Shown one piece after another: positions 8,343-40,569 of a DNA stretch of 64,000 bases. Source of the DNA: an uncultured candidate division Zixibacteria bacterium (GTDB taxonomy: Bacteria; Zixibacteria; MSB-5A5; SM1-73); NCBI GenBank assembly GCA_903908285.1, contig CAIVRH010000023.1, positions 25,052 to 89,051 of the forward strand, read 5' to 3'. Positions within the stretch are counted from its first letter, which is position 1, and the number at the start of each line of letters is the position of its first letter. The translations under genes were made by a program, and so were the position numbers. The notes beneath the pieces are model-generated. The model was not told the DNA's origin. It was given only the letters and a program-made list of their open reading frames with translations, and made no database searches.

Positions 8343-10435
8343 GTTTAAGCGCTTGGAAGTATAGAATAACTATTTTATGCATATCTTTTCTCCTGTTTGG
8401 ATGTGCTTATTACAATACCCTGTATAATGCTAACAGATACTTCAGGGAGGGGGAGAAAGCTCAAAAAGGCGCTTCGGCGACTAATCGGCAAAGCGCGGGC
8501 AGCGCGCAATATGAGAGTGCCATAAAGAAAGCTTCCAAGGTTTTGACCTTCTATCCCAAAAGCAAATGGGCCGATGACGCTTTGTTTCTTATCGGAAGAG
8601 CCTACTTCAATATGGGGGAAGACGTCAAAGCCAAAAGGAAATTCGAAGAGTTAACTCAAAGCTTCCCTAAAAGTAAATTCATAGATGATTCGAGATATTA
8701 TATCAGTATGTGTCAATACAACTTAGGAGAAGAAGATGAAGCGATAAGCTCTTTGAGCGAGCTTTTGGATTCGAAGAAGACGGACAAAAAAAGAAAAGGT
8801 CAGGCTTCCTTTTGGATCGGCGAGATGCAATTCAAAAAAGAAGAATATGAAGATGCTATAACCAATTATGAGAAAACGTTAAACGAATTTGATCCGGATA
8901 CTCTCTCTGCAGTCACTCAGTTTCGCATCGGAGAATGTTTCTTGGCAAAAAAAGATTATCTTAAAGCGCAGGAGGCTTTTGCCCAGGTGGAGAAGCGTGA
9001 TCCCTCTAAGGATCTTTTGTTCGATTCCAAATTCAAAGTGGGAGAATGTTGTTACTGGTTGAGCGAATATCAGAAAGGTATGGATATATATGTAGCGCTT
9101 TCCCAGGACAAAAAATTCAGCAGCAAGCTTGCCGATGTTAGTTTAAAGATGGCAGAGGGATATAATTTTCTGGACGAATTGTCCCTGGCTATGAGATGGT
9201 ATACCCAGGTTACCGAGACTTATCCCAGAACCGAGGCATCCGCCAATGCTTATTTTCAGTTGGGCAGGATATATCAGGAGAAATTCGGAGACTTGGCGGA
9301 AGCCAAAAAGATGTTTGAAACCTGCAAGAGTGAAAATGCAAATTCCCCCATCGCCAAGGAGGCTTTGACCCGGAGTGCCAATATCTCCAAAATCGAGGAA
9401 TATCAAAAGGATTTATCGCAGGAAGATTCGACTAAATCCAGTATCACCTTGTTTCTTTTGGCTGAACTATATCTATTACAGATGAATCAACCCGACTCTG
9501 CACTGGATGAGTATATGACTTTAGTGGAAAAGTTTCCTCAATCCGAATATGCCCCCAAATCCCTTTACGCGGCTGCCTGGATTTGGGAAAATGTTAAAAA
9601 GGACTCCCTTGAAGCAGAGAAGATATATCGCCGAATTTTAAGTGAGTATCCCCAATCGGAATATGGGAAAATAGCACTTAAGTTTTTATCCGAAACCGGA
9701 TCCATAGGATATGCCCAACCCGATTCTTCGGATACTCTCAATCCGGAGAAGATCTACCGGCAGTCGGAAAGGCTTCTGTTTGAGGAAAACGATGTTTATT
9801 CTGCTTTGACTTTATACGATCTGATCATCGAGAAGTTTCCTCGAAGCCCCTATGCAGCAAAATCTCTCTATGCCAAGGCTTGGACCACCGAACATTTTTT
9901 AAACCCTGAAGACAGTTCCGTGATTTTGGCTTATAAAGATGTGATCGACAAGTATCCGGATTCCCAATATGCCCAGGACGCTAAAATTAAATTGGGACTT
10001 GCCCAAAAGGCTCAACCTCCTCCTCCACCACCACCCCAGACTACACCAGCTTTAGCAGACACGGCAGACACCACACAAACAGCTGCGGCTGACACCTCCG
10101 GACCCCTGTTTCCAAAAGCACCAGATCCACCACTCAAAAGGGGTGTGTTTGTGTATCCGGAAGAAGAACGCCTTTCCGGCATAAAGGGAACGGTGGTGCT
10201 GAAGATTCAGATTGGATTTGACGGGCTGGTGAAAGAAGCCGAGGTGGTTAATTCGTTAGGGAATCTGTGGATAGATGAAGCGGCTAAGAAGGCAGCTTTG
10301 AACACCACCTTTGATACTCAAAAGATGGACCCAACCGCATTGGGGGGGTGGTTTCTATATCCGGTAGAGGTTAAATCGCCTGATGAACAACCAGCGGACC
10401 ATAACGCTGATCCAACCCAACAACAGGGACAGTGA
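8339..10435 (+). CDS. TPR-repeat lipoprotein with a Pro-rich linker and a C-terminal TonB-C-like domain
   Basis: Signal/lipobox (LLFGCAYY), multiple TPR-like units, PPPPPPPPQTTP linker, and a C-terminal GVFVYPEEERLSGIKGTVVLKIQIGFDG...NTTFDT consistent with the TonB C-terminal fold. Confidence 0.6.
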   Translation: MSLSAWKYRITILCISFLLFGCAYYNTLYNANRYFREGEKAQKGASATNRQSAGSAQYESAIKKASKVLTFYPKSKWADDALFLIGRAYFNMGEDVKAKRKFEELTQSFPKSKFIDDSRYYISMCQYNLGEEDEAISSLSELLDSKKTDKKRKGQASFWIGEMQFKKEEYEDAITNYEKTLNEFDPDTLSAVTQFRIGECFLAKKDYLKAQEAFAQVEKRDPSKDLLFDSKFKVGECCYWLSEYQKGMDIYVALSQDKKFSSKLADVSLKMAEGYNFLDELSLAMRWYTQVTETYPRTEASANAYFQLGRIYQEKFGDLAEAKKMFETCKSENANSPIAKEALTRSANISKIEEYQKDLSQEDSTKSSITLFLLAELYLLQMNQPDSALDEYMTLVEKFPQSEYAPKSLYAAAWIWENVKKDSLEAEKIYRRILSEYPQSEYGKIALKFLSETGSIGYAQPDSSDTLNPEKIYRQSERLLFEENDVYSALTLYDLIIEKFPRSPYAAKSLYAKAWTTEHFLNPEDSSVILAYKDVIDKYPDSQYAQDAKIKLGLAQKAQPPPPPPPQTTPALADTADTTQTAAADTSGPLFPKAPDPPLKRGVFVYPEEERLSGIKGTVVLKIQIGFDGLVKEAEVVNSLGNLWIDEAAKKAALNTTFDTQKMDPTALGGWFLYPVEVKSPDEQPADHNADPTQQQGQ

Positions 10436-14006: not shown

Positions 14007-14882
14007 TTACGATCCACAGGGAGGCGGTCCACCTCTGAACAGATAATTGATCGAATAGACTATATCTCCAATATCGACTCTCCCGTCGCAGTTGGCATCA
14101 CCCACCAGCCCCAAAGAGAGAACAGGGACAGTGATCCTTCGGGAGGGGGGAGTGCCGTCTGCGCAGTAGGCACTGATGAGCATGAGCGAATGGGAGGGAG
14201 GGATTTCGGTAATAGAGAGAGAGTGAGGGGTTCCATTAGCCGTCTTATTAAAATATAGGGTTGCCAACACACCGGTGGTTCCGGAATCGATCGGTGTTAT
14301 CCCAGTAAAATTGGCGCGAGAGGAGATGAGAACGGTCTTCTCCGTGTTATCGATACGAACAAGATTCTGATCCGGATTCCAGCTTGATGGAATTATGCTT
14401 CCGTAGAAACTCACACTGTCTAAAGTTACCTCAACCTCACCGGGTTGATCGGCATAGCTTAAAGGTATCACGAACCCCACTAAATCCGGTCCCTCATTCA
14501 ACAATATTTTGACACTGATGGTATCGGTAGGGCCGGAAGCCATAGGAGAAATCAAGTCTGAAGACAATAATATTTTACTGCCTAACTTTACGGAGGTTCC
14601 GGAGTAAGGAATAAGACTGCACCCGGTATAACAGTAACCGATTAGTTGCATTACATCACCCATATTGATACCCGAGGAGCCATCCACATCAGCATCAATA
14701 GGATTGACAGGAGGGGGTGAGTTCTTGTAAAGATAATTTATCAGGTAGACTATATCACCGGTCTCCACTGTGCCACTATTATTAATGTCTCCAGGAATGG
14801 CGGATACCGGTGTAACAAACAAACCGCACCAAAACATGGCTAAAAAGCCACAGAAGACTAAAGAAACTATAAGCTTTTTCAT
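14007..14882 (-). CDS. secreted double-dockerin-like protein, paralog of 12441..13355
   Basis: Same architecture and ~50% identity by eye (MKKLxxxLVFCGF..., GDIVYLINYLYKN, GINMGDVMQLIGY, C-terminal GDANCDGRVDIGDIVYSINYLFRGGPPPC). Confidence 0.6.
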   Translation of the reverse strand: MKKLIVSLVFCGFLAMFWCGLFVTPVSAIPGDINNSGTVETGDIVYLINYLYKNSPPPVNPIDADVDGSSGINMGDVMQLIGYCYTGCSLIPYSGTSVKLGSKILLSSDLISPMASGPTDTISVKILLNEGPDLVGFVIPLSYADQPGEVEVTLDSVSFYGSIIPSSWNPDQNLVRIDNTEKTVLISSRANFTGITPIDSGTTGVLATLYFNKTANGTPHSLSITEIPPSHSLMLISAYCADGTPPSRRITVPVLSLGLVGDANCDGRVDIGDIVYSINYLFRGGPPPCGS

Positions 14883-15217: not shown

Positions 15218-16531
15218 TTATTCTCTGCTCCTCACCTCTCCCCCTACGATGGTGCAGAAAACCTTACCACGAAGTCTTTTCTTGCCAAAGGGTGAATTCT
15301 TTGACTTCGATTGAAACTTGGTCGGATCCACCACCCACAGAGTTTTGGGATGGATGATGGTGATATCTGCCGGGAAGTTTTTCTTAATCCTTCCCCCATT
15401 CAGATTCAATATTTTAGCGGGATTTATGGTCAGCTTAGCTATGGCTTGTGACCAGGAAAGAATCTTTTTCTCGATTAATTCGGTAACCACCAAGCCCAAA
15501 GCGGTCTCCAAACCCACCATTCCGCAAGGGGCAAAATCGAACTCCACGTCTTTTTCCTCAATCGAATGAGGGGCATGGTCGGTGGCGATGCAATCGATGG
15601 TCCCGTCCGCCAAGCCTTTTTTTATCGCTTCCACATCTTTCTTCGATCTTAGCGGCGGGTTGACTTTGGCATTGGTGTCGAATGTCCTTATTATCTCGTG
15701 GGTCAACGAGAAATGGTGGGGAGTGGCTTCGCAGGTGACTTTTATACCTCTCTTTTTAGCCTGACGGATAAGCTCCACCGAACCCTCGGTGGAAACGTGG
15801 GCGATATGAAGGTGGGCTTTGGTAAATTCAGCCAGTTTAATATCCCGCGCCACCATGATTTCTTCAGCCACCGAAGGTATGCCGCTCATCCCCAGACTGG
15901 TAGATACAAAACCCTCATGCATAACTCCGCTGCCGGAAAGATTCAAATCCTCACAGTGAGAGATCACCGGCAGATCAAACATCCGGCAATATTCCAAAGC
16001 GTTTCTCATCACTTGCGGATCGGAGACCGGTTTTCCGTCATCCGAGATCGCCACCACCCCGGCCTGGACCAAATCGTAAATCTCGGTGAGCTCCTCGCCC
16101 ATCTGATTTTTGGTGATACAACCGATCGGATACACTTTGCATTTTGCCTGTTTTGCTTTCTCGTAGACAAACTTTACGGTTTCCTGATTATCGATAGGGG
16201 GATGGGTGTTAGGCATACAGCAGACCGAGGTGAATCCTCCAGCTACGGCTGCACAGGAACCGGTATATATGGTTTCCTCGTCCTCTCTTCCCGGCTCCCT
16301 CAGGTGGGTATGCATGTCTATCAGACCGGGAACCACTATCATTTCCTTGGCATCGATGGTCTCTTTCGCCCCAAGCTTGCTTTTAGGCTTCTCGATTCTC
16401 TTAATCACTCCATCCCGGATGAAAATATCCGCGATCCGGTCGGTTTTGCTTTCCGGGTCGATCACTCTGCCACCTACGATGGCCAGATCGAATTCCGAAA
16501 CCACTCCTTTTTCCTTCTCGTAGTTATTCAA
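15218..16531 (-). CDS. pyrC: dihydroorotase
   Basis: PGLIDMHTHLREPG, metal-ligand His/Asp pattern, ~430 aa. Confidence 0.9.
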   Translation of the reverse strand: MNNYEKEKGVVSEFDLAIVGGRVIDPESKTDRIADIFIRDGVIKRIEKPKSKLGAKETIDAKEMIVVPGLIDMHTHLREPGREDEETIYTGSCAAVAGGFTSVCCMPNTHPPIDNQETVKFVYEKAKQAKCKVYPIGCITKNQMGEELTEIYDLVQAGVVAISDDGKPVSDPQVMRNALEYCRMFDLPVISHCEDLNLSGSGVMHEGFVSTSLGMSGIPSVAEEIMVARDIKLAEFTKAHLHIAHVSTEGSVELIRQAKKRGIKVTCEATPHHFSLTHEIIRTFDTNAKVNPPLRSKKDVEAIKKGLADGTIDCIATDHAPHSIEEKDVEFDFAPCGMVGLETALGLVVTELIEKKILSWSQAIAKLTINPAKILNLNGGRIKKNFPADITIIHPKTLWVVDPTKFQSKSKNSPFGKKRLRGKVFCTIVGGEVRSRE

Positions 16532-17456
16532 CTTTTCCTTCTCCTCCGCTTAAAAGATATAAAACCGCCATTCTCACCGCTACTCCGTTGGTTACCTGGT
16601 CCAAGATCACCGAGTGAGGACCGTCCGCCACTTCCGGGGTGATCTCCACCCCTCTATTTATAGGTCCCGGATGCATGATGGTGAAATTCTGATTCAACCG
16701 ATTTAGTCTATCCCGGGTTATTCCAAATTTGTTGGAATACTCCCTGAGTGAAGGCAAAAGACTGCCCCTTTGTCTTTCTAACTGAATCCTTAGAACATTG
16801 ACCACGTCCGCCCCTTCTAAAGCTTGGTCCAGATCGGAATATGCTTTCACCCCCATCTTTTCGATCTCCAGTGGGAGCATGGTGGTGGGACCGCATACCG
16901 AAACATCCGCTCCCAAGGCAGTGAATCCCCAGATATCCGATCTTGCCACCCGGCTGTGTTTTATGTCCCCCACGATCACGACTTTTAAGCCTTTGATCCT
17001 TTTGTACTTTTCTCTGACAGTGAAAACGTCCAGCAATCCCTGGGTGGGATGTTCATGGGCTCCATCTCCGGCATTGATGATGGATGCCTTCATACACTGA
17101 GTAAGAAAATAGGGGACTCCAGAGGCTTGATGCCTAACCACCACCATATCGATCTTCATAGCTTCGATATTTCTAACCGTGTCCTTCAACGTCTCCCCTT
17201 TTTTGACGCTGGAGGTCGAAGCGGAGAAGTTCACCACCTCGGCGGAAAGACGTTTCTCTGCCAGCTCAAAGGAGATGCGGGTGCGGGTGGAAGCCTCGTA
17301 GAACAAGTTCACCACCCCCACCCCTCTCAAGGTGGGAACGATTCGGATGGGGCGTGCCAGAATCTCCTTTAAAGTTTCCGCGGTATCCAGAATCAAGGTT
17401 ATCTCATCTTTACTCATCCCCTCCAAGGCGAGGAGATGTCTGCTACGTAATTTCAT
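16524..17456 (-). CDS. pyrB: aspartate carbamoyltransferase catalytic subunit
   Basis: STRTR and HPTQ(G)LLD motifs. GGAGGT RBS before the ATG at 17456. Confidence 0.9.
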   Translation of the reverse strand: MKLRSRHLLALEGMSKDEITLILDTAETLKEILARPIRIVPTLRGVGVVNLFYEASTRTRISFELAEKRLSAEVVNFSASTSSVKKGETLKDTVRNIEAMKIDMVVVRHQASGVPYFLTQCMKASIINAGDGAHEHPTQGLLDVFTVREKYKRIKGLKVVIVGDIKHSRVARSDIWGFTALGADVSVCGPTTMLPLEIEKMGVKAYSDLDQALEGADVVNVLRIQLERQRGSLLPSLREYSNKFGITRDRLNRLNQNFTIMHPGPINRGVEITPEVADGPHSVILDQVTNGVAVRMAVLYLLSGGEGKVE

Positions 17457-17474
17457 CACACCTCCGAAAATACC

Positions 17475-17501
17475 GGTTCGTAGTTCGTGGTTCGTGGTTG
17501 G
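17475..17501. repeat. (GTTCRTRG)n octamer repeat tract in the pyrR-pyrB spacer
   Basis: ggttcgtagttcgtggttcgtggttgg. Related tracts at 55909-55999 and 59683-59707. Confidence 0.6.
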
Positions 17502-17646
17502 AAGTCTCTACTTTACGGTTCACGCTTGAATTTCTTCATGGAATTTAGCGCTTTTCTATCCATATCATTCTTCATCCGTCATTCTTTATTCTTCATTCGA
17601 TATTAGCTTTATTTTATTTCTTCTTTTTCCATTTTCTCTTGACTCT

Positions 17647-18192
17647 TCACTGCTTTATGATGGACACACTGTCCTCCTTGTCCACCTCGGTTATCTTCAC
17701 ATTCACCCGGTCATCCTTGGCGGTGGGAATGTTTTTCCCCACATAATCTGCGCGGATGGGAAGCTCGCGATGTCCCCGGTCGACTAAAACCGCCAGCTGG
17801 ATGTTTTTCGGTCGACCGAAATCGATTATCTGGTCCAAAGCTGCCCGGATGGTCCTGCCGGTGAACAAGACATCGTCCACCAGGACTATCACTTTATCCA
17901 CCACATCGAATAAGACCTCGGTTTTTTGAACCACAGGCTGTTCCAGTTTGGTCTGGATGTCATCCCGGTACAAGGTTATGTCCATCAGCCCGACGGGGAT
18001 TTTTACTTTTTCGATTTGTTCAATCAGCTTGGCGATTCGCTCGGCCAAGTATGCTCCCCGGGTTTTGATTCCAATGACTGCCAGATTTTCCGCGCCCTTG
18101 TTTTTTTCCACCATCTCATGGGCCACGCGAATCAATGCTCTTTCCACCGCTTTGGCATCCATGACCAATACGATTTTCTGTTTCTTAGGCAA
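17647..18192 (-). CDS. pyrR: bifunctional pyrimidine operon regulatory protein / uracil phosphoribosyltransferase
   Basis: PRTase motif [17 protein letters not shown], ~180 aa, located upstream of pyrB-pyrC. Confidence 0.85.
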
Positions 18193-18321: not shown

Positions 18322-18358
18322 AAAAATACCCTTCCTCGGTTTTTCTGAGGAAGGGTAG
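18322..18358 (-). terminator. rho-independent terminator ending the 22585->18461 minus-strand operon
   Basis: aaaaaaataCCCTTCCTCggtttttctGAGGAAGGGtag: 9-bp GC-rich stem, with a T-run on the minus transcript. Confidence 0.65.
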
Positions 18359-18460
18359 TTATTTCAATTCGTATTATTTTCATTTTACCTTTTCTAGCTT
18401 CGCCGAACTAGATTAAAAGGCTCTTCGGTTGTACCTAATCTATTCAAGGATTCTTTCTTG

Positions 18461-19309
18461 TCAAGTATTTTTTTGGAGTGTTTCCAGCCAATCTAAATGG
18501 TAGTGAAGAAGATAAGTTTTTACTGCTTCCTTTTTTCCTTTGTATGAGTCTCGAAGGTCATTTACATAATTATCAACAAGCGGAACAATTCCTTGGTCTC
18601 TTATCTCAGACCGTTTTCGACCCCAATTTCCAGTTGGTTTGAGACATCCCCTGCCTCCTCTAAGTATCCAAGCCGGATCGTTTATAATCTTAACTTTCAA
18701 TCCTTGTTCTTCGAGAAATCTAACATGGCGACCTTGAAATGTTATTATAATTGATGGTTTTAATTCCTTTAGTTCCCTCAAAGCAAGTTCATCATTAAGT
18801 TCCCAATATTTTTCCGGTGATTCGAGATGGTTAGGATTTATATCTATTTTCTTGTGAAGAGAGAATTTGTAGTAATTTGAAACTGCAACATGGTCTTGTA
18901 CTTCGTTAAAGGTCGAATATTTCTCTTGGGATATAGAATAAATTAATACACCAGCCAAAGCAGGCAGAACCCCTCCTTGATAAGGAGCAATTGCGATTTC
19001 AGAAAAGTCCAAATCGTTTTCTGGATATTTTCTCTCAAAACCAGGGCAAGAATAATAAAGTCTTTCTACCAGTTTATCGAAGTTTTTTGAGTATAGTTCT
19101 CTGAGGGATAATTCGTTCAGGCTGAAAGGGATATTCTGTGCTGTGGCATAAATGAGAATTCTGTATCCCTCATAGTTTTTGCCAACAAACGGGATATAAG
19201 GAGGAAAAAACTGACCATCATCAGTTTTTGTAGATAATAAGTCAGCATATTTTGATAAATTTCTTAAGTCCCAATTTTGGAACTCTGTGATAAGACTTTT
19301 TATATCCAT
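18461..19309 (-). CDS. hypothetical protein, last gene of the candidate gasdermin-protease operon
   Basis: 282 aa, no signal peptide, no confident domain (only a faint resemblance to UDG-superfamily-like folds). Same strand, 99 nt after the protease gene. Confidence 0.35.
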   Translation of the reverse strand: MDIKSLITEFQNWDLRNLSKYADLLSTKTDDGQFFPPYIPFVGKNYEGYRILIYATAQNIPFSLNELSLRELYSKNFDKLVERLYYSCPGFERKYPENDLDFSEIAIAPYQGGVLPALAGVLIYSISQEKYSTFNEVQDHVAVSNYYKFSLHKKIDINPNHLESPEKYWELNDELALRELKELKPSIIITFQGRHVRFLEEQGLKVKIINDPAWILRGGRGCLKPTGNWGRKRSEIRDQGIVPLVDNYVNDLRDSYKGKKEAVKTYLLHYHLDWLETLQKNT

Positions 19310-19408
19310 ATGTCTCCTTTCTGTTTTTAGTATTTGTCAGGCATCCTTCGGAACCCGACCTACAGTATGTAAAACTTCAGGCGACCACCAGAGTTGTTCC
19401 TGCAGATT

Positions 19409-20779
19409 TTATTCTTGACGATTTTCTTCCTTCTTAGTCATCGCCACGGTCGATCGAAAAACAGTCGACACCAACGGATGTTTATATGCATCCGATCCCA
19501 AAAGTCCAATATAGTAAGTGGCTAAAAACCAGGTCCAGAGCCGGAGACCGGGAGGCAGCGAATTTACGATCTCCAGATACTTCTCATCGAATTCCTCGGG
19601 CGGAGGTAAATAAATGGACAGTCCTTTTGGAAGATAGGGATTGTCGGGCACTTCGCTTGCCACCAACAATCCGGATCGGTCGAAGAAATCCAACCATGCC
19701 TGCGCTGATTTTTTCACCTCTGCCGGGAACGTTCCCTCCCGAAGTCCGCCAGCGAAAAGCTTCAAGTCTATAAAACCTTCCTTAAAGGAATAGGTACCTT
19801 CAATGCAGGTTTTGATTCTCTCCACACCATCTGAGGCGACGTAAGCGGCCAATACTCTGGCTAAATTCTCCGTCAGATTGATAAAATCCGGGAACCGGTT
19901 GCAATCAAATGCCACTTGCGTAATAAGAAGATCGGTATCGGATTCGGAAGAATTTCCGTAGGATCTCTTCGTTTCTCTTACCAACTGCTCCGCAAGCTGG
20001 ACTGAGTCTTGACCGGGACTGCTTTTTAGTTTTTGCAGTATTTTATCATAAGGATAACCGGTGCCGGGTTCCTGGTTCTCTGATGCTATAAGTATTTTTG
20101 TGAAATCATACCAGGAAGAAAGTGCCTCCAGATTGCCCATGTTGCAAGCATCCAAAGCCATAATATCGAACTTAGACCACTTGTATTTATCTTCCGGATT
20201 CAAGCGCTTCTTAAGCTCCGGCAGCGACTGTTTAACCAGATCCGCAAGTTGATGGCAATAGAGGGCGGGATCGCCGGGCGGCATTGAAATGGCATTACGC
20301 TTAAGGTATTGTCTCCAGGTGAAATCATCTTGAAGAACCCCCTTCCAGCCAAAGCCATGACCGGATAATATCAAAAGTCTCCTTTCTGCCGGGAAAAGGA
20401 CGGTATGGTCGAGGATAATCTCTTTTAAAACCCTTTGGTCGATACTCCACAAATCCGTAAATCGAGCGATAAAATCGTCTTCCAGCTCAGTATCTTGGTT
20501 TAACCGGGCAAAAAAGGAATCGGTTAATAGAGGACCATCGAAGAGGACACAGATGTTAACATCCGGGTTAGAGCCGATCGCCTTCATCTCCATCAGGTCA
20601 TCAAACAAATATTCAGCTAAATTGCAGTCCGCTGCCATATAAACCAGAATAGTCCATTTAGCCACATGGTTGATTGAGTCTAAGTTGGTTTTTGATATTT
20701 GAAAGGTAAAATCCTCGGGAGACAATCGTACGGTCTGGGGCAATCCTCCCCGATAAGGATTCCCGCTTTTAAATAACAT
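19409..20779 (-). CDS. clostripain-like (peptidase C11, clan CD caspase-fold) cysteine protease, cytoplasmic
   Basis: WTILVYMAADCNLAEY (C11 N-terminal block), ILSGHGFGWKG (catalytic His-Gly) and IMALDACNMG (catalytic Cys, DAClM motif). No signal peptide. ~200-aa C-terminal extension of unknown function. Confidence 0.6.
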   Translation of the reverse strand: MLFKSGNPYRGGLPQTVRLSPEDFTFQISKTNLDSINHVAKWTILVYMAADCNLAEYLFDDLMEMKAIGSNPDVNICVLFDGPLLTDSFFARLNQDTELEDDFIARFTDLWSIDQRVLKEIILDHTVLFPAERRLLILSGHGFGWKGVLQDDFTWRQYLKRNAISMPPGDPALYCHQLADLVKQSLPELKKRLNPEDKYKWSKFDIMALDACNMGNLEALSSWYDFTKILIASENQEPGTGYPYDKILQKLKSSPGQDSVQLAEQLVRETKRSYGNSSESDTDLLITQVAFDCNRFPDFINLTENLARVLAAYVASDGVERIKTCIEGTYSFKEGFIDLKLFAGGLREGTFPAEVKKSAQAWLDFFDRSGLLVASEVPDNPYLPKGLSIYLPPPEEFDEKYLEIVNSLPPGLRLWTWFLATYYIGLLGSDAYKHPLVSTVFRSTVAMTKKEENRQE

Positions 20780-20939
20780 TGCCTCCTCCTTTTATGCTTT
20801 TTACGAGTAATTCCCATTAAGAGGGTTTAGGGAGTAGAGTGTACCCGGGGTCAAGTTATCGGATGAATGATTGCCCGTATTTCTCAGATCATTTCTCTCT
20901 ATATCACCAGATGCTTTGAATCCCCATCCCTTCAAACCC

Positions 20940-21752
20940 TCACCAAGAATCCAGGTCGATCAATTCATTCTGTGCCAGCAGAACCTCCTGCCGCGGTTTT
21001 TCCCCACCGGCTCCTTTCATTACCAGGTTATCTGAGTCCATCTTCAGCCGAAAATGTGCTTTTCCCTGAACATCCTCCTCCACCCAAAAAGAAGCTGCCT
21101 TGAAGCCGAATTTCAAGAACTTGTTCCCTTGATAAGATACTTTTGCAGTTTCGTCCTTGGAGACTTTTATCCCTCCCGTTCCCCCAAACAGGCTCTGGAT
21201 TCCCTTAACGTCGAGGTCCAGCACCTGCTGGCTGGAATTGTAAGCGATCACTCCGAACGAGTTGGATTTGATGGTTTCGGTTATGATATGCGCCTCGCCT
21301 TCCTCATTGATGCATTCCATCAGAAGGGTGTTTGTTTTGGGCTTGGCGGAGGACAGGTAATCGTCGATGGCCGTGATGAAGACCGAATCGGAGAGTACGT
21401 TCTCAAACACGATCTCGATCTGAACCGCCTTTTCGTAGCCGGCATTCAGTTTTCCGGAAGCCGCACCCATAGCGGAGAGATATTTATTCATCAGATCCAT
21501 GCCCAAGCGTGAATCCAGCTTGCTGGTCCTTTTACTGGTAATTTTGCCGGCGGTCTGATCATATTTGATTGGAGGAACGGATGCGGATTCTTCCACAAAA
21601 TGGGATAAGGGTCCCAATATCTCTAATTTCTTCTTCTTTCCTCCGATGATCAACAGCGGCTCGACATTCTCCCTGGGAAGACTTATTACATTGTAACCCA
21701 AGTGATTCAGATAGGTGAGCGAATCGTCTTTGCAAAACATGATTTCCTCCAT
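20940..21752 (-). CDS. candidate bacterial gasdermin (bGSDM)-like pore-forming protein
   Basis: ~266-270 aa. From the second Met (21740) the protein starts MFC with Cys at position 3. LNHLGYNVISLPRENVEPLLIIGGKKKK resembles the gasdermin N-terminal L..G..IPV.SL....F.P..LVVRK motif. Beta-rich composition. Sits immediately upstream of a caspase-fold protease. Arg 16 residues from the C-terminus (EKPR|QEVLLAQNELIDLDSW). Confidence 0.5.
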   Translation of the reverse strand: MEEIMFCKDDSLTYLNHLGYNVISLPRENVEPLLIIGGKKKKLEILGPLSHFVEESASVPPIKYDQTAGKITSKRTSKLDSRLGMDLMNKYLSAMGAASGKLNAGYEKAVQIEIVFENVLSDSVFITAIDDYLSSAKPKTNTLLMECINEEGEAHIITETIKSNSFGVIAYNSSQQVLDLDVKGIQSLFGGTGGIKVSKDETAKVSYQGNKFLKFGFKAASFWVEEDVQGKAHFRLKMDSDNLVMKGAGGEKPRQEVLLAQNELIDLDSW

Positions 21753-21784
21753 GCTTATATTTATCTGTTACCGATACCTTAAGT

Positions 21785-22108
21785 TTAGATTAATGCCAGC
21801 AGCCTATCAATTATGAGCTTGGTAATTCCATTGGCGAGGCTTTGTGCTCGTGCCCTGGCCTCGACTTTCATTTTAAGCGTTTGCATCACCGAAAGATCTC
21901 GGATATCGCCGACATATCCTTCAAATTGTTCCTTGGTTATCAGACCCATAGCCAGCTGGTTTAGGTATATCTCCAATTTTTCCCCCTGTCTTTGGATGAA
22001 CTCCTCCGAATCCGCTTTGGCATCACTGACCAAGTTCTTGAGTTCATCCTTTGCCAGTTTGCCGCTGTCATCTTTCAATCGGTCCAGCCAATCCTCCCAT
22101 GCACTCAT
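21785..22108 (-). CDS. small helical hypothetical protein (107 aa) in the gasdermin-like operon
   Basis: Coding-like acidic/helical sequence. 32 nt upstream of the gasdermin-like gene and 12 nt downstream of the lipoprotein gene. Confidence 0.4.
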   Translation of the reverse strand: MSAWEDWLDRLKDDSGKLAKDELKNLVSDAKADSEEFIQRQGEKLEIYLNQLAMGLITKEQFEGYVGDIRDLSVMQTLKMKVEARARAQSLANGITKLIIDRLLALI

Positions 22109-22120
22109 ACTTGTTCCCTC

Positions 22121-22585
22121 CTATTCATTCTTGTTTTTAATTCTCTCGGTCTGAATGGCGATGTCGAATGCTTCCGTCAGGTTTTGCTTCTGGTTACTCA
22201 AATGGGTTGCGCTCCATTTTCCATTTTTCATCCGGTCATCCACATGTTTTTCAAACAGATTCCGGAGGATCTTGATCTGCTCAGAAGTTTCCGCATTCTT
22301 CTGGCCCTTTCCATATTCATATTCGTACATCTGGGCGAGTTTAAGACGAAGACCGGCAATCTGGCTGGAATTCAAGGAATCGGTTGCAAAACTGTCATAC
22401 AGAGCCAGGATTTCGGGTTTCAGGTCGGTTAAGTTTTTATAGGTGACCGGATCATAGTAGGTGACGAATCCTAACTGGTGAGCGCAGCCACATAGACTCA
22501 GCCAGAAAAGCAAAATAGCCGCCACTTCCAGCTTCCGTCGAAAGACCTGCTCTACGGCATGAGTCCTAACGAAAGGGATCCCCAT
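22121..22585 (-). CDS. putative lipoprotein (154 aa), first gene of the operon
   Basis: Signal peptide with Cys (LLFWLSLCGC). A promoter-like TTGACA-17-TATGGT lies on the minus strand at ~22700-22735. Confidence 0.45.
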   Translation of the reverse strand: MGIPFVRTHAVEQVFRRKLEVAAILLFWLSLCGCAHQLGFVTYYDPVTYKNLTDLKPEILALYDSFATDSLNSSQIAGLRLKLAQMYEYEYGKGQKNAETSEQIKILRNLFEKHVDDRMKNGKWSATHLSNQKQNLTEAFDIAIQTERIKNKNE

Positions 22586-22744
22586 GGTTATCCTCCTATG
22601 AGAAAAATGGTATGATTACCCTTGCCAGGGCTTAGGCAAAAAGGTAGCCCTTGAATCAAAATAAGATCAACAGATTTTACCATAAAAAATTTACCGAAGA
22701 TTGTCAAGTCAAATCGAATGGCACTTGAAAAAATCAACTTGGTT

Positions 22745-24502
22745 TCACTGCGTTCCAAACAACTCCAACATCTCTTCCTCGGTGAAAATTTCCTTCTTGA
22801 TTCTGATTCCTTTTTCCCGCAGCTTCTTCACCAGCTCTACCACTTGGGGTAAATCAAGTCCAACCGATTTTATCGTTTCCGTATCTTTAAAGAATGCTTC
22901 CTTATCGCAAAAAGAAACTACTTTTCCTTCATTCAACAGGAGAATCTTATGCACCAACTCTGCGATCAAATCCATGTTATGCGAGATAATGATTATAGTC
23001 ACTCCATTTGAGTTTAATTCCTGCAGAAGTTTTTTCATCTCCATAGTGCTTTTCGGATCCAAACCGCAAGTCGGTTCATCCAGAATCAAAATCTCGGGAT
23101 TGGAAGCCAATATTCCGGCAATGGCCACCTTTCTCTGCTCTCCGCCGCTTAGGGAAAAAGGGGAGCGGGAAGCGAATAGATCAAAATCCAACCCCACTTG
23201 CTTTATGGCTTGTTTTACCCGATCATCTATCTCTTCTTTAACCAGTCCAAAATTCCTCGGACCAAAAGCGATGTCGTCATATATCGTATCCTCGAACAAT
23301 TGCATTTCCGGAAATTGAAATACCAAACCCACTTTCTGCCTTATATTTTTCATGTCAACGCTTTTGTCTTTTAAATTCTCCCCGTCCACCCGCACTTCTC
23401 CGGATGCGGGAACCAGCAACCCGTTTAGGTGTTGTGCCAGAGTACTTTTTCCCGATCCGGTCGGCCCGATCAATCCGATGAATTCTCCACGGTTTATTTC
23501 CAGGGTAATTCCGTCCAATGCCTTCTTCTTGGTTGGCAGGCCTTGATCGTAAAAGTAATCCGCCCCCTTAATAGAAATCAAAGGGTGAGAAGGGGCTGTG
23601 GACTGTGGACTATGGACTGTGGACATGTTTTGCTCGTCCGCTGTAAATTCAACCAGAGTCTTTTCACCGGTTGTGACACTCTGAGCGATCCCGCTTACTA
23701 ATTCATCCTGGTTTAAGCATTCATCGGACAAGAACCATCCCTTTTGTTTCAAAGCAGAGGCTATTCTCATGGTGAACGGCACTTCCAGTCCGATCTTCTC
23801 CAAAGACTCCTTCTGTTTGAATATCCGAACAGGCGAGCCATCCAACGTTATTTTCCCCCTTTCCATTACCAAAATCCGGTCTGCTGCCGCGGCCTCTTCC
23901 GGAAACTGGGTAATATGAATCACCGTCACATTTCCTTTGCGGGAGAGTTCTTGAATCAAATGCAGGATTTCCCTCCTCCCTTTCGGATCCAAAAGCGAGG
24001 TGGGTTCATCCAAGATCAAGTACTTAGGATACATGCATAAAACCGCAGCCAATGCCACCCTTTGTTTTTCTCCACCGGATAGCTTATGCGGCGGGTGATT
24101 TCTATATTTGCCCAGGTGGAAATATTCCAGTGCCCACTCCACTCTTTTCTTCATTTCTGCATAAGGTAATGCCAGATTCTCCAAGCCAAAGGCGATCTCT
24201 CTTTCCACCGACGTGGAAATTATCTGATTATCCGGATTTTGAAAGACCATACCCACTTTCTGGCGAATTAACTTTTGGGAATTTTTATCTTTGGTATCCA
24301 GATCATCGATCGTAATTTGTCCGCTTTCCGGCAGGATCAGTGCGGGAAGGAGCCGGGCCAAAGTGGTTTTGCCGGACCCGTTCGCTCCGATGATAGCGAC
24401 GAACTCACCTTCTTCAAGCTGCAGGCTGGTATGATCCAAAGCCAGGACAGATGATTTCTCATCCAGCTTGTATTTATATGAAACCTGGTTAAGCTCAATC
24501 AT
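22745..24502 (-). CDS. ABC transporter ATP-binding protein with two fused ATPase domains (ECF/CbiO-like)
   Basis: Two complete Walker A (GANGSGKTT / GPTGSGKST), LSGGE signature and Walker B sets in 585 aa. Confidence 0.85.
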   Translation of the reverse strand: MIELNQVSYKYKLDEKSSVLALDHTSLQLEEGEFVAIIGANGSGKTTLARLLPALILPESGQITIDDLDTKDKNSQKLIRQKVGMVFQNPDNQIISTSVEREIAFGLENLALPYAEMKKRVEWALEYFHLGKYRNHPPHKLSGGEKQRVALAAVLCMYPKYLILDEPTSLLDPKGRREILHLIQELSRKGNVTVIHITQFPEEAAAADRILVMERGKITLDGSPVRIFKQKESLEKIGLEVPFTMRIASALKQKGWFLSDECLNQDELVSGIAQSVTTGEKTLVEFTADEQNMSTVHSPQSTAPSHPLISIKGADYFYDQGLPTKKKALDGITLEINRGEFIGLIGPTGSGKSTLAQHLNGLLVPASGEVRVDGENLKDKSVDMKNIRQKVGLVFQFPEMQLFEDTIYDDIAFGPRNFGLVKEEIDDRVKQAIKQVGLDFDLFASRSPFSLSGGEQRKVAIAGILASNPEILILDEPTCGLDPKSTMEMKKLLQELNSNGVTIIIISHNMDLIAELVHKILLLNEGKVVSFCDKEAFFKDTETIKSVGLDLPQVVELVKKLREKGIRIKKEIFTEEEMLELFGTQ

Positions 24503-40472: not shown

Positions 40473-40569
40473 GGAAGTGGATAGGATCTGGTGGTCCTTG
40501 CGGACTTCAAATCCGTCGTCCCTCCGGTTCTCCGGGGGGAGGTGGGTTCGATTCCCACCCCTTCCGCCA
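40473..40569 (+). tRNA. selC: tRNA-Sec (selC), anticodon UCA
   Basis: Hand-folded: acceptor GGAAGUG(G), 6-bp D-stem AGGAUC/GGUCCU with 4-nt loop (the Sec hallmark), anticodon stem GCGGA/UCCGU with loop CUUCAAA (UCA), long extra arm CCCUCCGGuucuCCGGGGGAGG, T-arm GUGGGuucgauuCCCAC, CCA encoded; 97 nt. Confidence 0.8.

Follow-up and report, generated by a model that had tools for sequence, protein, structure and literature searches.

Bacterial gasdermins (bGSDMs) form the counterpart of pyroptosis in prokaryotes, and the main open question about them is how their proteases are switched on. The bGSDMs known to date are held inactive by C-terminal peptides of 16-30 residues, and the founding survey of these systems listed caspase/C14, CHAT, subtilase, trypsin-like and U49 enzymes as their partner types. 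Proteases of the C11 family have been described separately; PmC11 and clostripain are zymogens whose self-cleavage takes place at a basic residue of the loop that follows the catalytic His. Here we describe a locus in which the two are encoded side by side. The window analysed is a stretch of 64,000 nucleotides from an uncultured candidate division Zixibacteria bacterium (GenBank assembly GCA_903908285.1, contig CAIVRH010000023.1, positions 25,052 to 89,051 of the forward strand), and all positions below are counted from its first letter. On its minus strand the window encodes a bGSDM (21740..20940) followed by a Peptidase_C11 protein (20779..19409), and we consider it probable that these two genes form a protease-activated suicide module carried in a variable slot that has an ABC ATPase gene on one side and the pyrR-pyrB-pyrC operon on the other. 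Loci used for comparison are designated by L numbers and individual proteins by P numbers.

The longest open reading frame (ORF) of the first gene runs from 21752 to 20940 on the minus strand and encodes 270 amino acids. The preliminary description of this DNA had called its product gasdermin-like and had proposed that the interval 20940..21752 be searched against gasdermin profiles and its predicted structure compared with solved gasdermins; both comparisons agreed with that call. The PADLOC bGSDM model PDLC02986 matched with an E-value of 5.2e-64 over profile positions 1-257 of 257, and the NCBIfam equivalog prok_gasdermin (NF051890) scored 173.5 bits against a cutoff of 100, so that both profiles were above threshold. 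In homologues of the window gasdermin, the Pfam family PF26164 (Bact_GSDM) was present in precomputed annotation. Additionally, a profile built from the window gasdermin and 15 homologues matched PDB entries 7n51/8sl0 at 2e-64 and also matched 7n50, 7n52 and 9v2s. The AlphaFold2 model had a predicted local distance difference test (pLDDT) value of 79. Upon comparison of this model with the PDB using Foldseek, the top match was the Vitiosangium bGSDM 7n51, with an E-value of 1.6e-25 and a template modelling (TM) score of 0.84; 7n50 and 7n52 came next, and then the eukaryotic gasdermins Trichoplax GSDM, GSDMD, GSDME and GSDMA3. By profile and by fold, the protein is a bona fide bGSDM. The Vitiosangium protein is also its closest solved structure, at 32% identity, and the best match in a genome scan was 43% identical and came from a metagenome-assembled genome (MAG) of Syntrophobacter.

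The second ATG, at 21740, is most likely the true start of the gasdermin gene, because 15 of 15 homologues begin there, the sequence GGAGGA lies 4 nucleotides upstream, and the resulting 266-residue version is on record in an NCBI/ENA-derived collection. The favoured gene is thus 20940..21740 on the minus strand, beginning MFCKDD, and the start given in the preliminary description was corrected to this position. Numbered from here, residue 3 is a Cys (codon 21732..21734, minus strand) that is invariant in all 16 aligned homologues. Palmitoyl-Cys was found at C3/C4 in the structures of the bGSDMs from Bradyrhizobium and Vitiosangium, and by analogy Cys3 is probably palmitoylated. The model contained a single long loop of low confidence, comprising residues 235-251, and then a C-terminal strand at residues 260-265; Leu260 is nearly invariant among the aligned homologues. 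When the model was set against the published structures, its short C-terminal peptide after a flexible loop, all within 266 residues, fitted the bGSDM architecture, in which such a peptide replaces the large C-terminal domain of mammalian gasdermins.

The second gene encodes a protein of 456 residues (19409..20779, minus strand), which the preliminary description had taken for a cytoplasmic C11 protease with a caspase fold; this assignment stood. Its only Pfam match was PF03415, with an E-value of 6.6e-31 and 108.6 bits against a cutoff of 25.8, which identifies it by profile as a member of Peptidase_C11, the clostripain family of clan CD. The NCBIfam clostripain equivalog TIGR02806 scored 41.2 bits, far under its cutoff of 550, and by these scores the protein is a C11 family member and not a clostripain orthologue. 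Its N-terminus is hydrophilic, lacks a signal peptide and is extended by about 35 conserved residues (GNPYRGGLP...). The catalytic dyad is intact. In particular, alignment to PDB entry 6n9j, a clostripain-related protein, placed SGHG on SHGDG and LDAC on FDAC. His141 (codon 20357..20359, minus strand) aligned with the catalytic His of 6n9j and was invariant in a clade of seven sequences. The Asp210-Ala211-Cys212 codons (20144..20152, minus strand) supply the S1 Asp and the catalytic Cys, and Asp210 and Cys212 were both invariant in the alignment of seven C11 orthologues. PmC11 (Asp177/Cys179) and clostripain (Asp229/Cys231) show the same spacing of S1 Asp and catalytic Cys, and in them the Asp sets the specificity for Arg/Lys. 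The clade to which the window protease belongs is small: when 1.84 billion representative proteins were searched exhaustively, about 17 full-length representatives were found at E<=1e-56, followed by a sharp drop to generic C11 domains. None of the PADLOC models matched the 456-residue protease.

The autoprocessing sites of the characterized C11 enzymes lie in one loop; in PmC11 the site is Lys147, 14 residues after His133, and in clostripain the sites are Arg181/Arg190. In the window protease, Arg156 (codon 20312..20314, minus strand) lies 15 residues after His141, and the position was basic (Arg or Lys) in seven of the seven clade members. From its position, Arg156 is a candidate for the autoprocessing site of a zymogen.

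We found that in nine further loci (L001, L004, L005, L007, L034, L035, L036, L043 and the P0005 contig) the next gene downstream of the bGSDM gene encodes a C11 orthologue; the gasdermins of these loci are 42% to 93% identical to that of the window. The co-occurrence of gasdermin homologues with proteases, which the preliminary description had expected, was therefore observed. L007 belongs to a Syntrophobacter MAG, and L034 is a fragment of 1.9 kb that is 93% identical to the window; the genomic contexts of the C11-linked loci were otherwise unrelated. Additionally, the protein P0196 (728 residues) is a natural fusion of a full-length bGSDM to a protease of the window's C11 clade. Its residues 1-266 aligned end-to-end with the window gasdermin at an E-value of 2e-31 and matched the PADLOC bGSDM model at 7e-37, and its residues 281-722 matched residues 5-441 of the window C11 protein. 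Because of the adjacency in nine loci and the fusion, we read the bGSDM and C11 genes as a functional unit. The fusion itself may be a suicide protein of one chain that cleaves itself, or may have arisen artefactually through loss of a stop codon; it keeps the gasdermin Cys3 and an L-I-M-R-G site.

As evident from the alignment of the gasdermin tails, a [K/R]-Gly pair occurs at the aligned position in 10 of 10 C11-linked gasdermins (the window, eight loci and P0196), 22-26 residues from the C-terminal end and preceded by two hydrophobic or small residues. The motif reads V-M-K242-G243 in the window and L-I-M-R-G in the fusion, and the neighbouring residues are variable. No such motif was found at that position in about 60 tails of gasdermins with other partners (S8, TldD/PmbA, CHAT and C25-like proteins). 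Lys242-Gly243 falls within the loop that is disordered in the model (residues 235-251), and the bGSDM of Runella is cut at Leu247-Gly in the equivalent loop, releasing a 21-residue peptide. C11 enzymes accept Arg/Lys at P1, and the conserved S1 Asp of the window protease fits the basic P1 residue of the gasdermin motif. Lys242-Gly243 (codons 21012..21017, minus strand) is thus predicted from sequence to be the P1-P1' scissile bond for the C11 enzyme. Residues Gly243-Trp266 (20943..21014, minus strand) would then form a peptide of 24 residues, which is predicted from the model to autoinhibit the gasdermin.

From these features we infer the following course of events. The gasdermin would be made as a soluble, inactive protein, probably palmitoylated at Cys3, with the 24-residue C-terminal peptide clamping the pore-forming core. 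The C11 protease, probably a zymogen, would have to cleave itself in the loop between His and Cys, with Arg156 as the candidate site, on receipt of some signal. The active enzyme would then cut the gasdermin after Lys242, at the Lys-Gly pair in the exposed loop, and the freed N-terminal domain would oligomerise, form large pores in the inner membrane and kill the cell. The purpose would most likely be abortive-infection defence against phage. In one version of this scheme no sensor is needed: self-cleavage at Arg156 is itself the infection-sensing step in a two-step cascade that ends with the cut at Lys242-Gly243, and either a phage factor or an altered state of the cell's physiology could set off the self-cleavage. 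We offer this version tentatively and think it somewhat unlikely; if true, the cascade would parallel, in bacteria, the activation of procaspases upstream of gasdermin.

The two genes lie in an island of five. The ABC ATPase gene (24502..22745, minus strand) and pyrR-pyrB-pyrC (18192..15218, minus strand) flank five co-directional ORFs on the minus strand, all of which were found where the preliminary description had placed them. In gene order, these encode a putative lipoprotein (22585..22121, 154 residues), a helical protein (22108..21785, 107 residues), the bGSDM, the C11 protease and a divergent protein of the uracil-DNA-glycosylase (UDG) superfamily (19309..18461, 282 residues). The five ORFs are taken as real genes because a Shine-Dalgarno-like sequence precedes each of them and public data hold exact or close homologues for each; the exact counterparts of all five lie on a MAG contig of 97.9 kb.

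The slot between the ABC ATPase gene and pyrR was also seen in L001 and L098, which come from organisms closely related to each other (PyrB 94.5% identical, ABC ATPase 80%); each of their PyrB proteins shares about 84% identity with that of the window. The slot cargo of these two relatives differs. In L001 the order is ABC ATPase, bGSDM, C11 and pyrRBC. In L098 the ABC ATPase gene is followed by a homologue of the 282-residue protein (63% identical), an 82-residue Cys-rich protein and pyrR-pyrB-pyrC. Because L001 carries the bGSDM-C11 pair alone and L098 carries the 282-residue homologue alone, the slot is a variable cargo site, and the island of the window consists of three independent modules lying side by side. 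The 82-residue protein of L098 (7043-7291), which lies between the UDG-like gene and pyrR, contains three Cys/His-rich repeats (CxxCGSxSxGSCSxSPHxxH).

The lipoprotein carries the lipobox S-L-C-G-C with its Cys at residue 34, and its homologues in L094-L097 (E-values of 1e-50 to 4e-52) always lie directly upstream of a homologue of the 107-residue protein. In all four loci the pair is present and a gasdermin is absent. The L094 copy of the 107-residue protein (P0146) belongs to a MAG named by NCBI 'Candidatus Aminicenantes', where the pair lies beside glycosyltransferase genes; in L095-L097 its neighbours are a secreted subtilase and a two-partner-secretion cluster. The 107-residue family is highly conserved: column identity averages 75%. 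Neither protein could be placed in a family by searches of Pfam, NCBIfam, PADLOC, PHROGs and PDB with single sequences or profiles. As a conserved unit, the pair consists of a lipoprotein of about 155-190 residues and then a helical protein of 107/108 residues with a hydrophobic C-terminus; it was seen in several uncultured lineages and in varied contexts (window 21785-22585, minus strand; L094 5032-5857; L095 5389-6327). A protein of 262/270 residues that follows a Peptidase_S8 gene in L095-97 was considered as a cryptic gasdermin and rejected, as the bGSDM hidden Markov model gave E>10 and the protein has a signal peptide. On the P0005 contig, a different 107-residue ORF, which may or may not be a homologue, lies two genes upstream of the bGSDM gene.

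The 282-residue protein is a divergent UDG-fold protein belonging to the uracil-DNA-glycosylase superfamily. Sequence searches of Pfam, NCBIfam and PDB gave no UDG match for it, and the canonical UDG motifs are replaced (e.g. T-A-Q-N, N-Y-Y-K-F-S, N-D-P-x-W). The guanine plus cytosine (GC) content of its gene is 35.7%, about 10 points below that of its neighbours, and another homologue lies among AAA, DUF2779, DUF488, HTH_17 and cpYpsA genes. The gene is independent cargo; it possibly encodes a DNA glycosylase and may be a defence gene.

The gaps between the five genes are 12, 44, 160 and 99 nucleotides in gene order, and no convincing intrinsic terminator was found within them. Two promoter-like sites were identified, both as consensus matches to a promoter type that may not be that of the host. 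The first, TTGACA-17-TATGGT (22679..22707, minus strand), lies 5' of the lipoprotein gene, agrees with the consensus at 10 of 12 positions and is a possible start of a transcript across all five genes. The second, TTGACA-16-TAGATT (18437..18464, minus strand), overlaps the stop codon of the 282-residue gene and is likely the promoter of the pyr operon. Downstream of it lies a PyrR binding site (Rfam RF00515; 18320..18424, minus strand), which scored 55.8 bits against a gathering score of 54 (E-value 5.7e-5); the match spans the full length of the model, with a small margin above the gathering score. The pyrR gene starts 128 nucleotides downstream of this match on the same strand. The preliminary description had drawn the edge of the island at a strong terminator at 18322-18358. 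A hairpin does exist at 18327-18357 (minus strand), with 13 pairs and a T-run; since it lies inside the RF00515 match upstream of pyrR, it is the attenuator terminator of the pyrR-pyrB-pyrC leader and not a dedicated boundary of the island. The same hairpin may incidentally stop transcripts arriving from upstream.

Several further observations were made in the window and in the compared loci. Transcripts leaving the island would run into a PyrR-binding attenuator, in a lineage that is uncultured. The spacer between the bGSDM and C11 genes is 160 nucleotides (20780-20939), compared with about 20 nucleotides in L001, L004 and L007; upon inspection of the spacer for promoter-like and terminator-like sites, none was detected. 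In L036 the gasdermin gene (8872-9674), whose product is 66% identical to that of the window, is split across two frames, by pseudogene formation or an assembly error, and the gap from gasdermin to C11 is about 330 nucleotides. Elsewhere in the window, a selenocysteine tRNA was found at 40473-40565 on the plus strand (Rfam, 67.7 bits) and dockerin-type repeats occur in the protein encoded at 14007-14882 on the minus strand; both are hints on the lifestyle and lineage of the organism.

More distant gasdermins had other partners, namely Peptidase_S8 (L006), a TldD/PmbA pair (L002), CHAT and weakly C25-like proteins. In L002 (8001-11539) a gasdermin relative is followed by the TldD/PmbA metalloprotease pair, which is not on the founding partner lists. 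Gasdermins of Acidobacteriaceae MAGs (e.g. L017) and of the metagenome contig L050 are followed by proteins of 479 residues with weak Peptidase_C25 matches, a partner type that those lists likewise lack.

We considered how many of the five genes belong to the system and whether its two core genes belong together. According to the preliminary description, the three extra genes were co-transcribed members of the gasdermin system, in which case they might serve as sensor, regulator or immunity components. The layout of the island agrees with this view, since the genes are co-directional, separated by 12-160 nucleotides without a convincing internal terminator, and preceded by a promoter-like site, and the 107-residue gene also lies upstream of the bGSDM gene in L034; the 107-residue ORF of the P0005 contig may count in its favour as well. 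However, L034 is so close to the window as to be effectively the same lineage, and it is the only other place where the 107-residue gene adjoins a bGSDM gene. In the seven more divergent bGSDM-C11 loci none of the three genes had a homologue (phmmer, E<=0.01), and in a phmmer search against all ORFs of 100 loci the near-identical L034 was the sole bGSDM-linked match. Each of the three was also found in gasdermin-free surroundings: the lipoprotein/107-residue pair is strongly conserved there, and the 282-residue gene, with its lower GC content, stands alone in the L098 slot and recurs in unrelated neighbourhoods. A single five-gene system is thus very improbable; the lipoprotein, 107-residue and 282-residue genes are not supported as components and are treated as unrelated neighbours. 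The opposite view, that even the two core genes are adjacent by accident, with the C11 enzyme acting on another substrate and the gasdermin activated in some other way, draws on the unusually long gap between them in the window. This view we find scarcely credible, as the genes remain neighbours in nine loci even where gasdermin identity has fallen to 42%, the gap often being about 20 nucleotides, they are fused in P0196, and the basic P1 motif of the gasdermin matches the conserved S1 Asp of the protease.

The reading of the pair as a suicide module with a defence role has several points against it, and some of them favour a genuine protease-activated pore former with another role, such as regulated lysis releasing cell contents, stress death or development. 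At the edges of the island, direct or inverted flanking repeats were limited to chance-level matches, and no integrase, transposase or other mobile-element gene was found. By Pfam, the surroundings out to about 10 kb hold housekeeping genes (e.g. pyrimidine biosynthesis, PGM and CTP synthase), with no recognisable defence island, and a search of viral contigs for relatives of both core genes gave none. Two organisms with PyrB proteins 84% identical also carry the pair in the same slot, flanked by housekeeping genes. According to the founding preprint, E. coli was not protected against phage by 12 bGSDM-protease systems, and most of the systems tested gave toxicity without defence. The weakest link is the trigger, which is left unexplained by a protease with no obvious sensor domain. 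Moreover, the C11-linked gasdermins form a single clade, and the conservation of the [K/R]-G motif is partly due to shared ancestry; the split gasdermin of L036 may mean that the system is decaying in some lineages; and read-through could possibly co-transcribe the bGSDM-C11 pair with its flanking genes. Cleavage, toxicity and phage defence are predictions. Against a role other than defence, the close relative L098 lacks the pair in the slot, which makes the pair dispensable and polymorphic in the way that is usual for defence genes; the slot also carries an AT-rich UDG-fold gene resembling published single-gene antiviral glycosylases; and elsewhere the pair lies in unrelated genomic contexts. 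We therefore give a non-defence role a small but appreciable chance and favour the two-gene suicide module.

If this reading is true, a protease family new to regulated cell death would be added to the clan-CD families known as gasdermin activators, and one lineage would have fused it with its substrate into a single self-cleaving polypeptide. It would be the first intracellular role in regulated death for the clostripain family, whose C11 members are otherwise secreted, some of them maturing extracellular toxins. The minimal C11 clade would offer a simple handle on protease activation, with no repeat-type sensor, a recognisable Lys/Arg-Gly site, a candidate zymogen site and a natural fusion. 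For annotation, the lipoprotein, 107-residue and 282-residue genes should carry no gasdermin-system label, and the slot between the ABC ATPase gene and pyrR is better called a variable cargo site.

The protease lies outside the described partner families of bGSDMs, although it shares clan CD with C14 and CHAT. No C11/clostripain-gasdermin pairing was found in the tables of the founding survey or in a full-text literature search of a non-exhaustive library, and C11 is apparently an undescribed partner family for a bacterial gasdermin. The suggestion in the preliminary description of an undescribed variant thus held for the C11 partner, which is absent from the founding lists, and failed for the three extra genes as components. 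The general architecture of a bGSDM plus a protease was already known, and the shared clan makes the C11 pairing plausible rather than startling.

Comparison with known proteins revealed clear similarities and some differences. The 282-residue protein can be likened, by description only, to Brig1/Brig2, the single-gene antiviral glycosylases of the UDG superfamily, which share a size of about 29-33 kDa, AT-richness and a location in variable regions; in the window protein, in contrast, the canonical UDG motifs are replaced. The C11 protease resembles PmC11 of Parabacteroides merdae, clostripain and the Bacteroides C11 enzymes in its PF03415 match, its dyad of His and then Cys, the S1 Asp before the Cys, the basic residue at nearly equal spacing in the His-Cys loop, and a C-terminal domain that follows the caspase-like core. 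These known enzymes act outside the cell or at its surface, in digestive or toxin-maturing roles, whereas the window enzyme has no signal peptide, carries the conserved N-terminal extension of about 35 residues and is predicted to have a dedicated intracellular substrate. The two-gene Runella zeae bGSDM-CHAT system and the Vitiosangium bGSDM (PDB 7N51) share with the window a gasdermin of about 266 residues, the N-terminal-domain fold, Cys3, a short inhibitory peptide after a flexible loop, a Gly at P1' (predicted in the window), and a clan-CD cysteine protease encoded immediately downstream. The window differs from the known bGSDM systems in that its partner is a Peptidase_C11 protein without LRR, TPR, WD40 or NACHT sensor repeats. 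Where Runella has Leu at P1, Lys/Arg is predicted here, and the predicted peptide has 24 rather than 21 residues. Finally, unlike the known bGSDM partners, the window protease probably needs zymogen autoprocessing, and it falls outside the PADLOC models.

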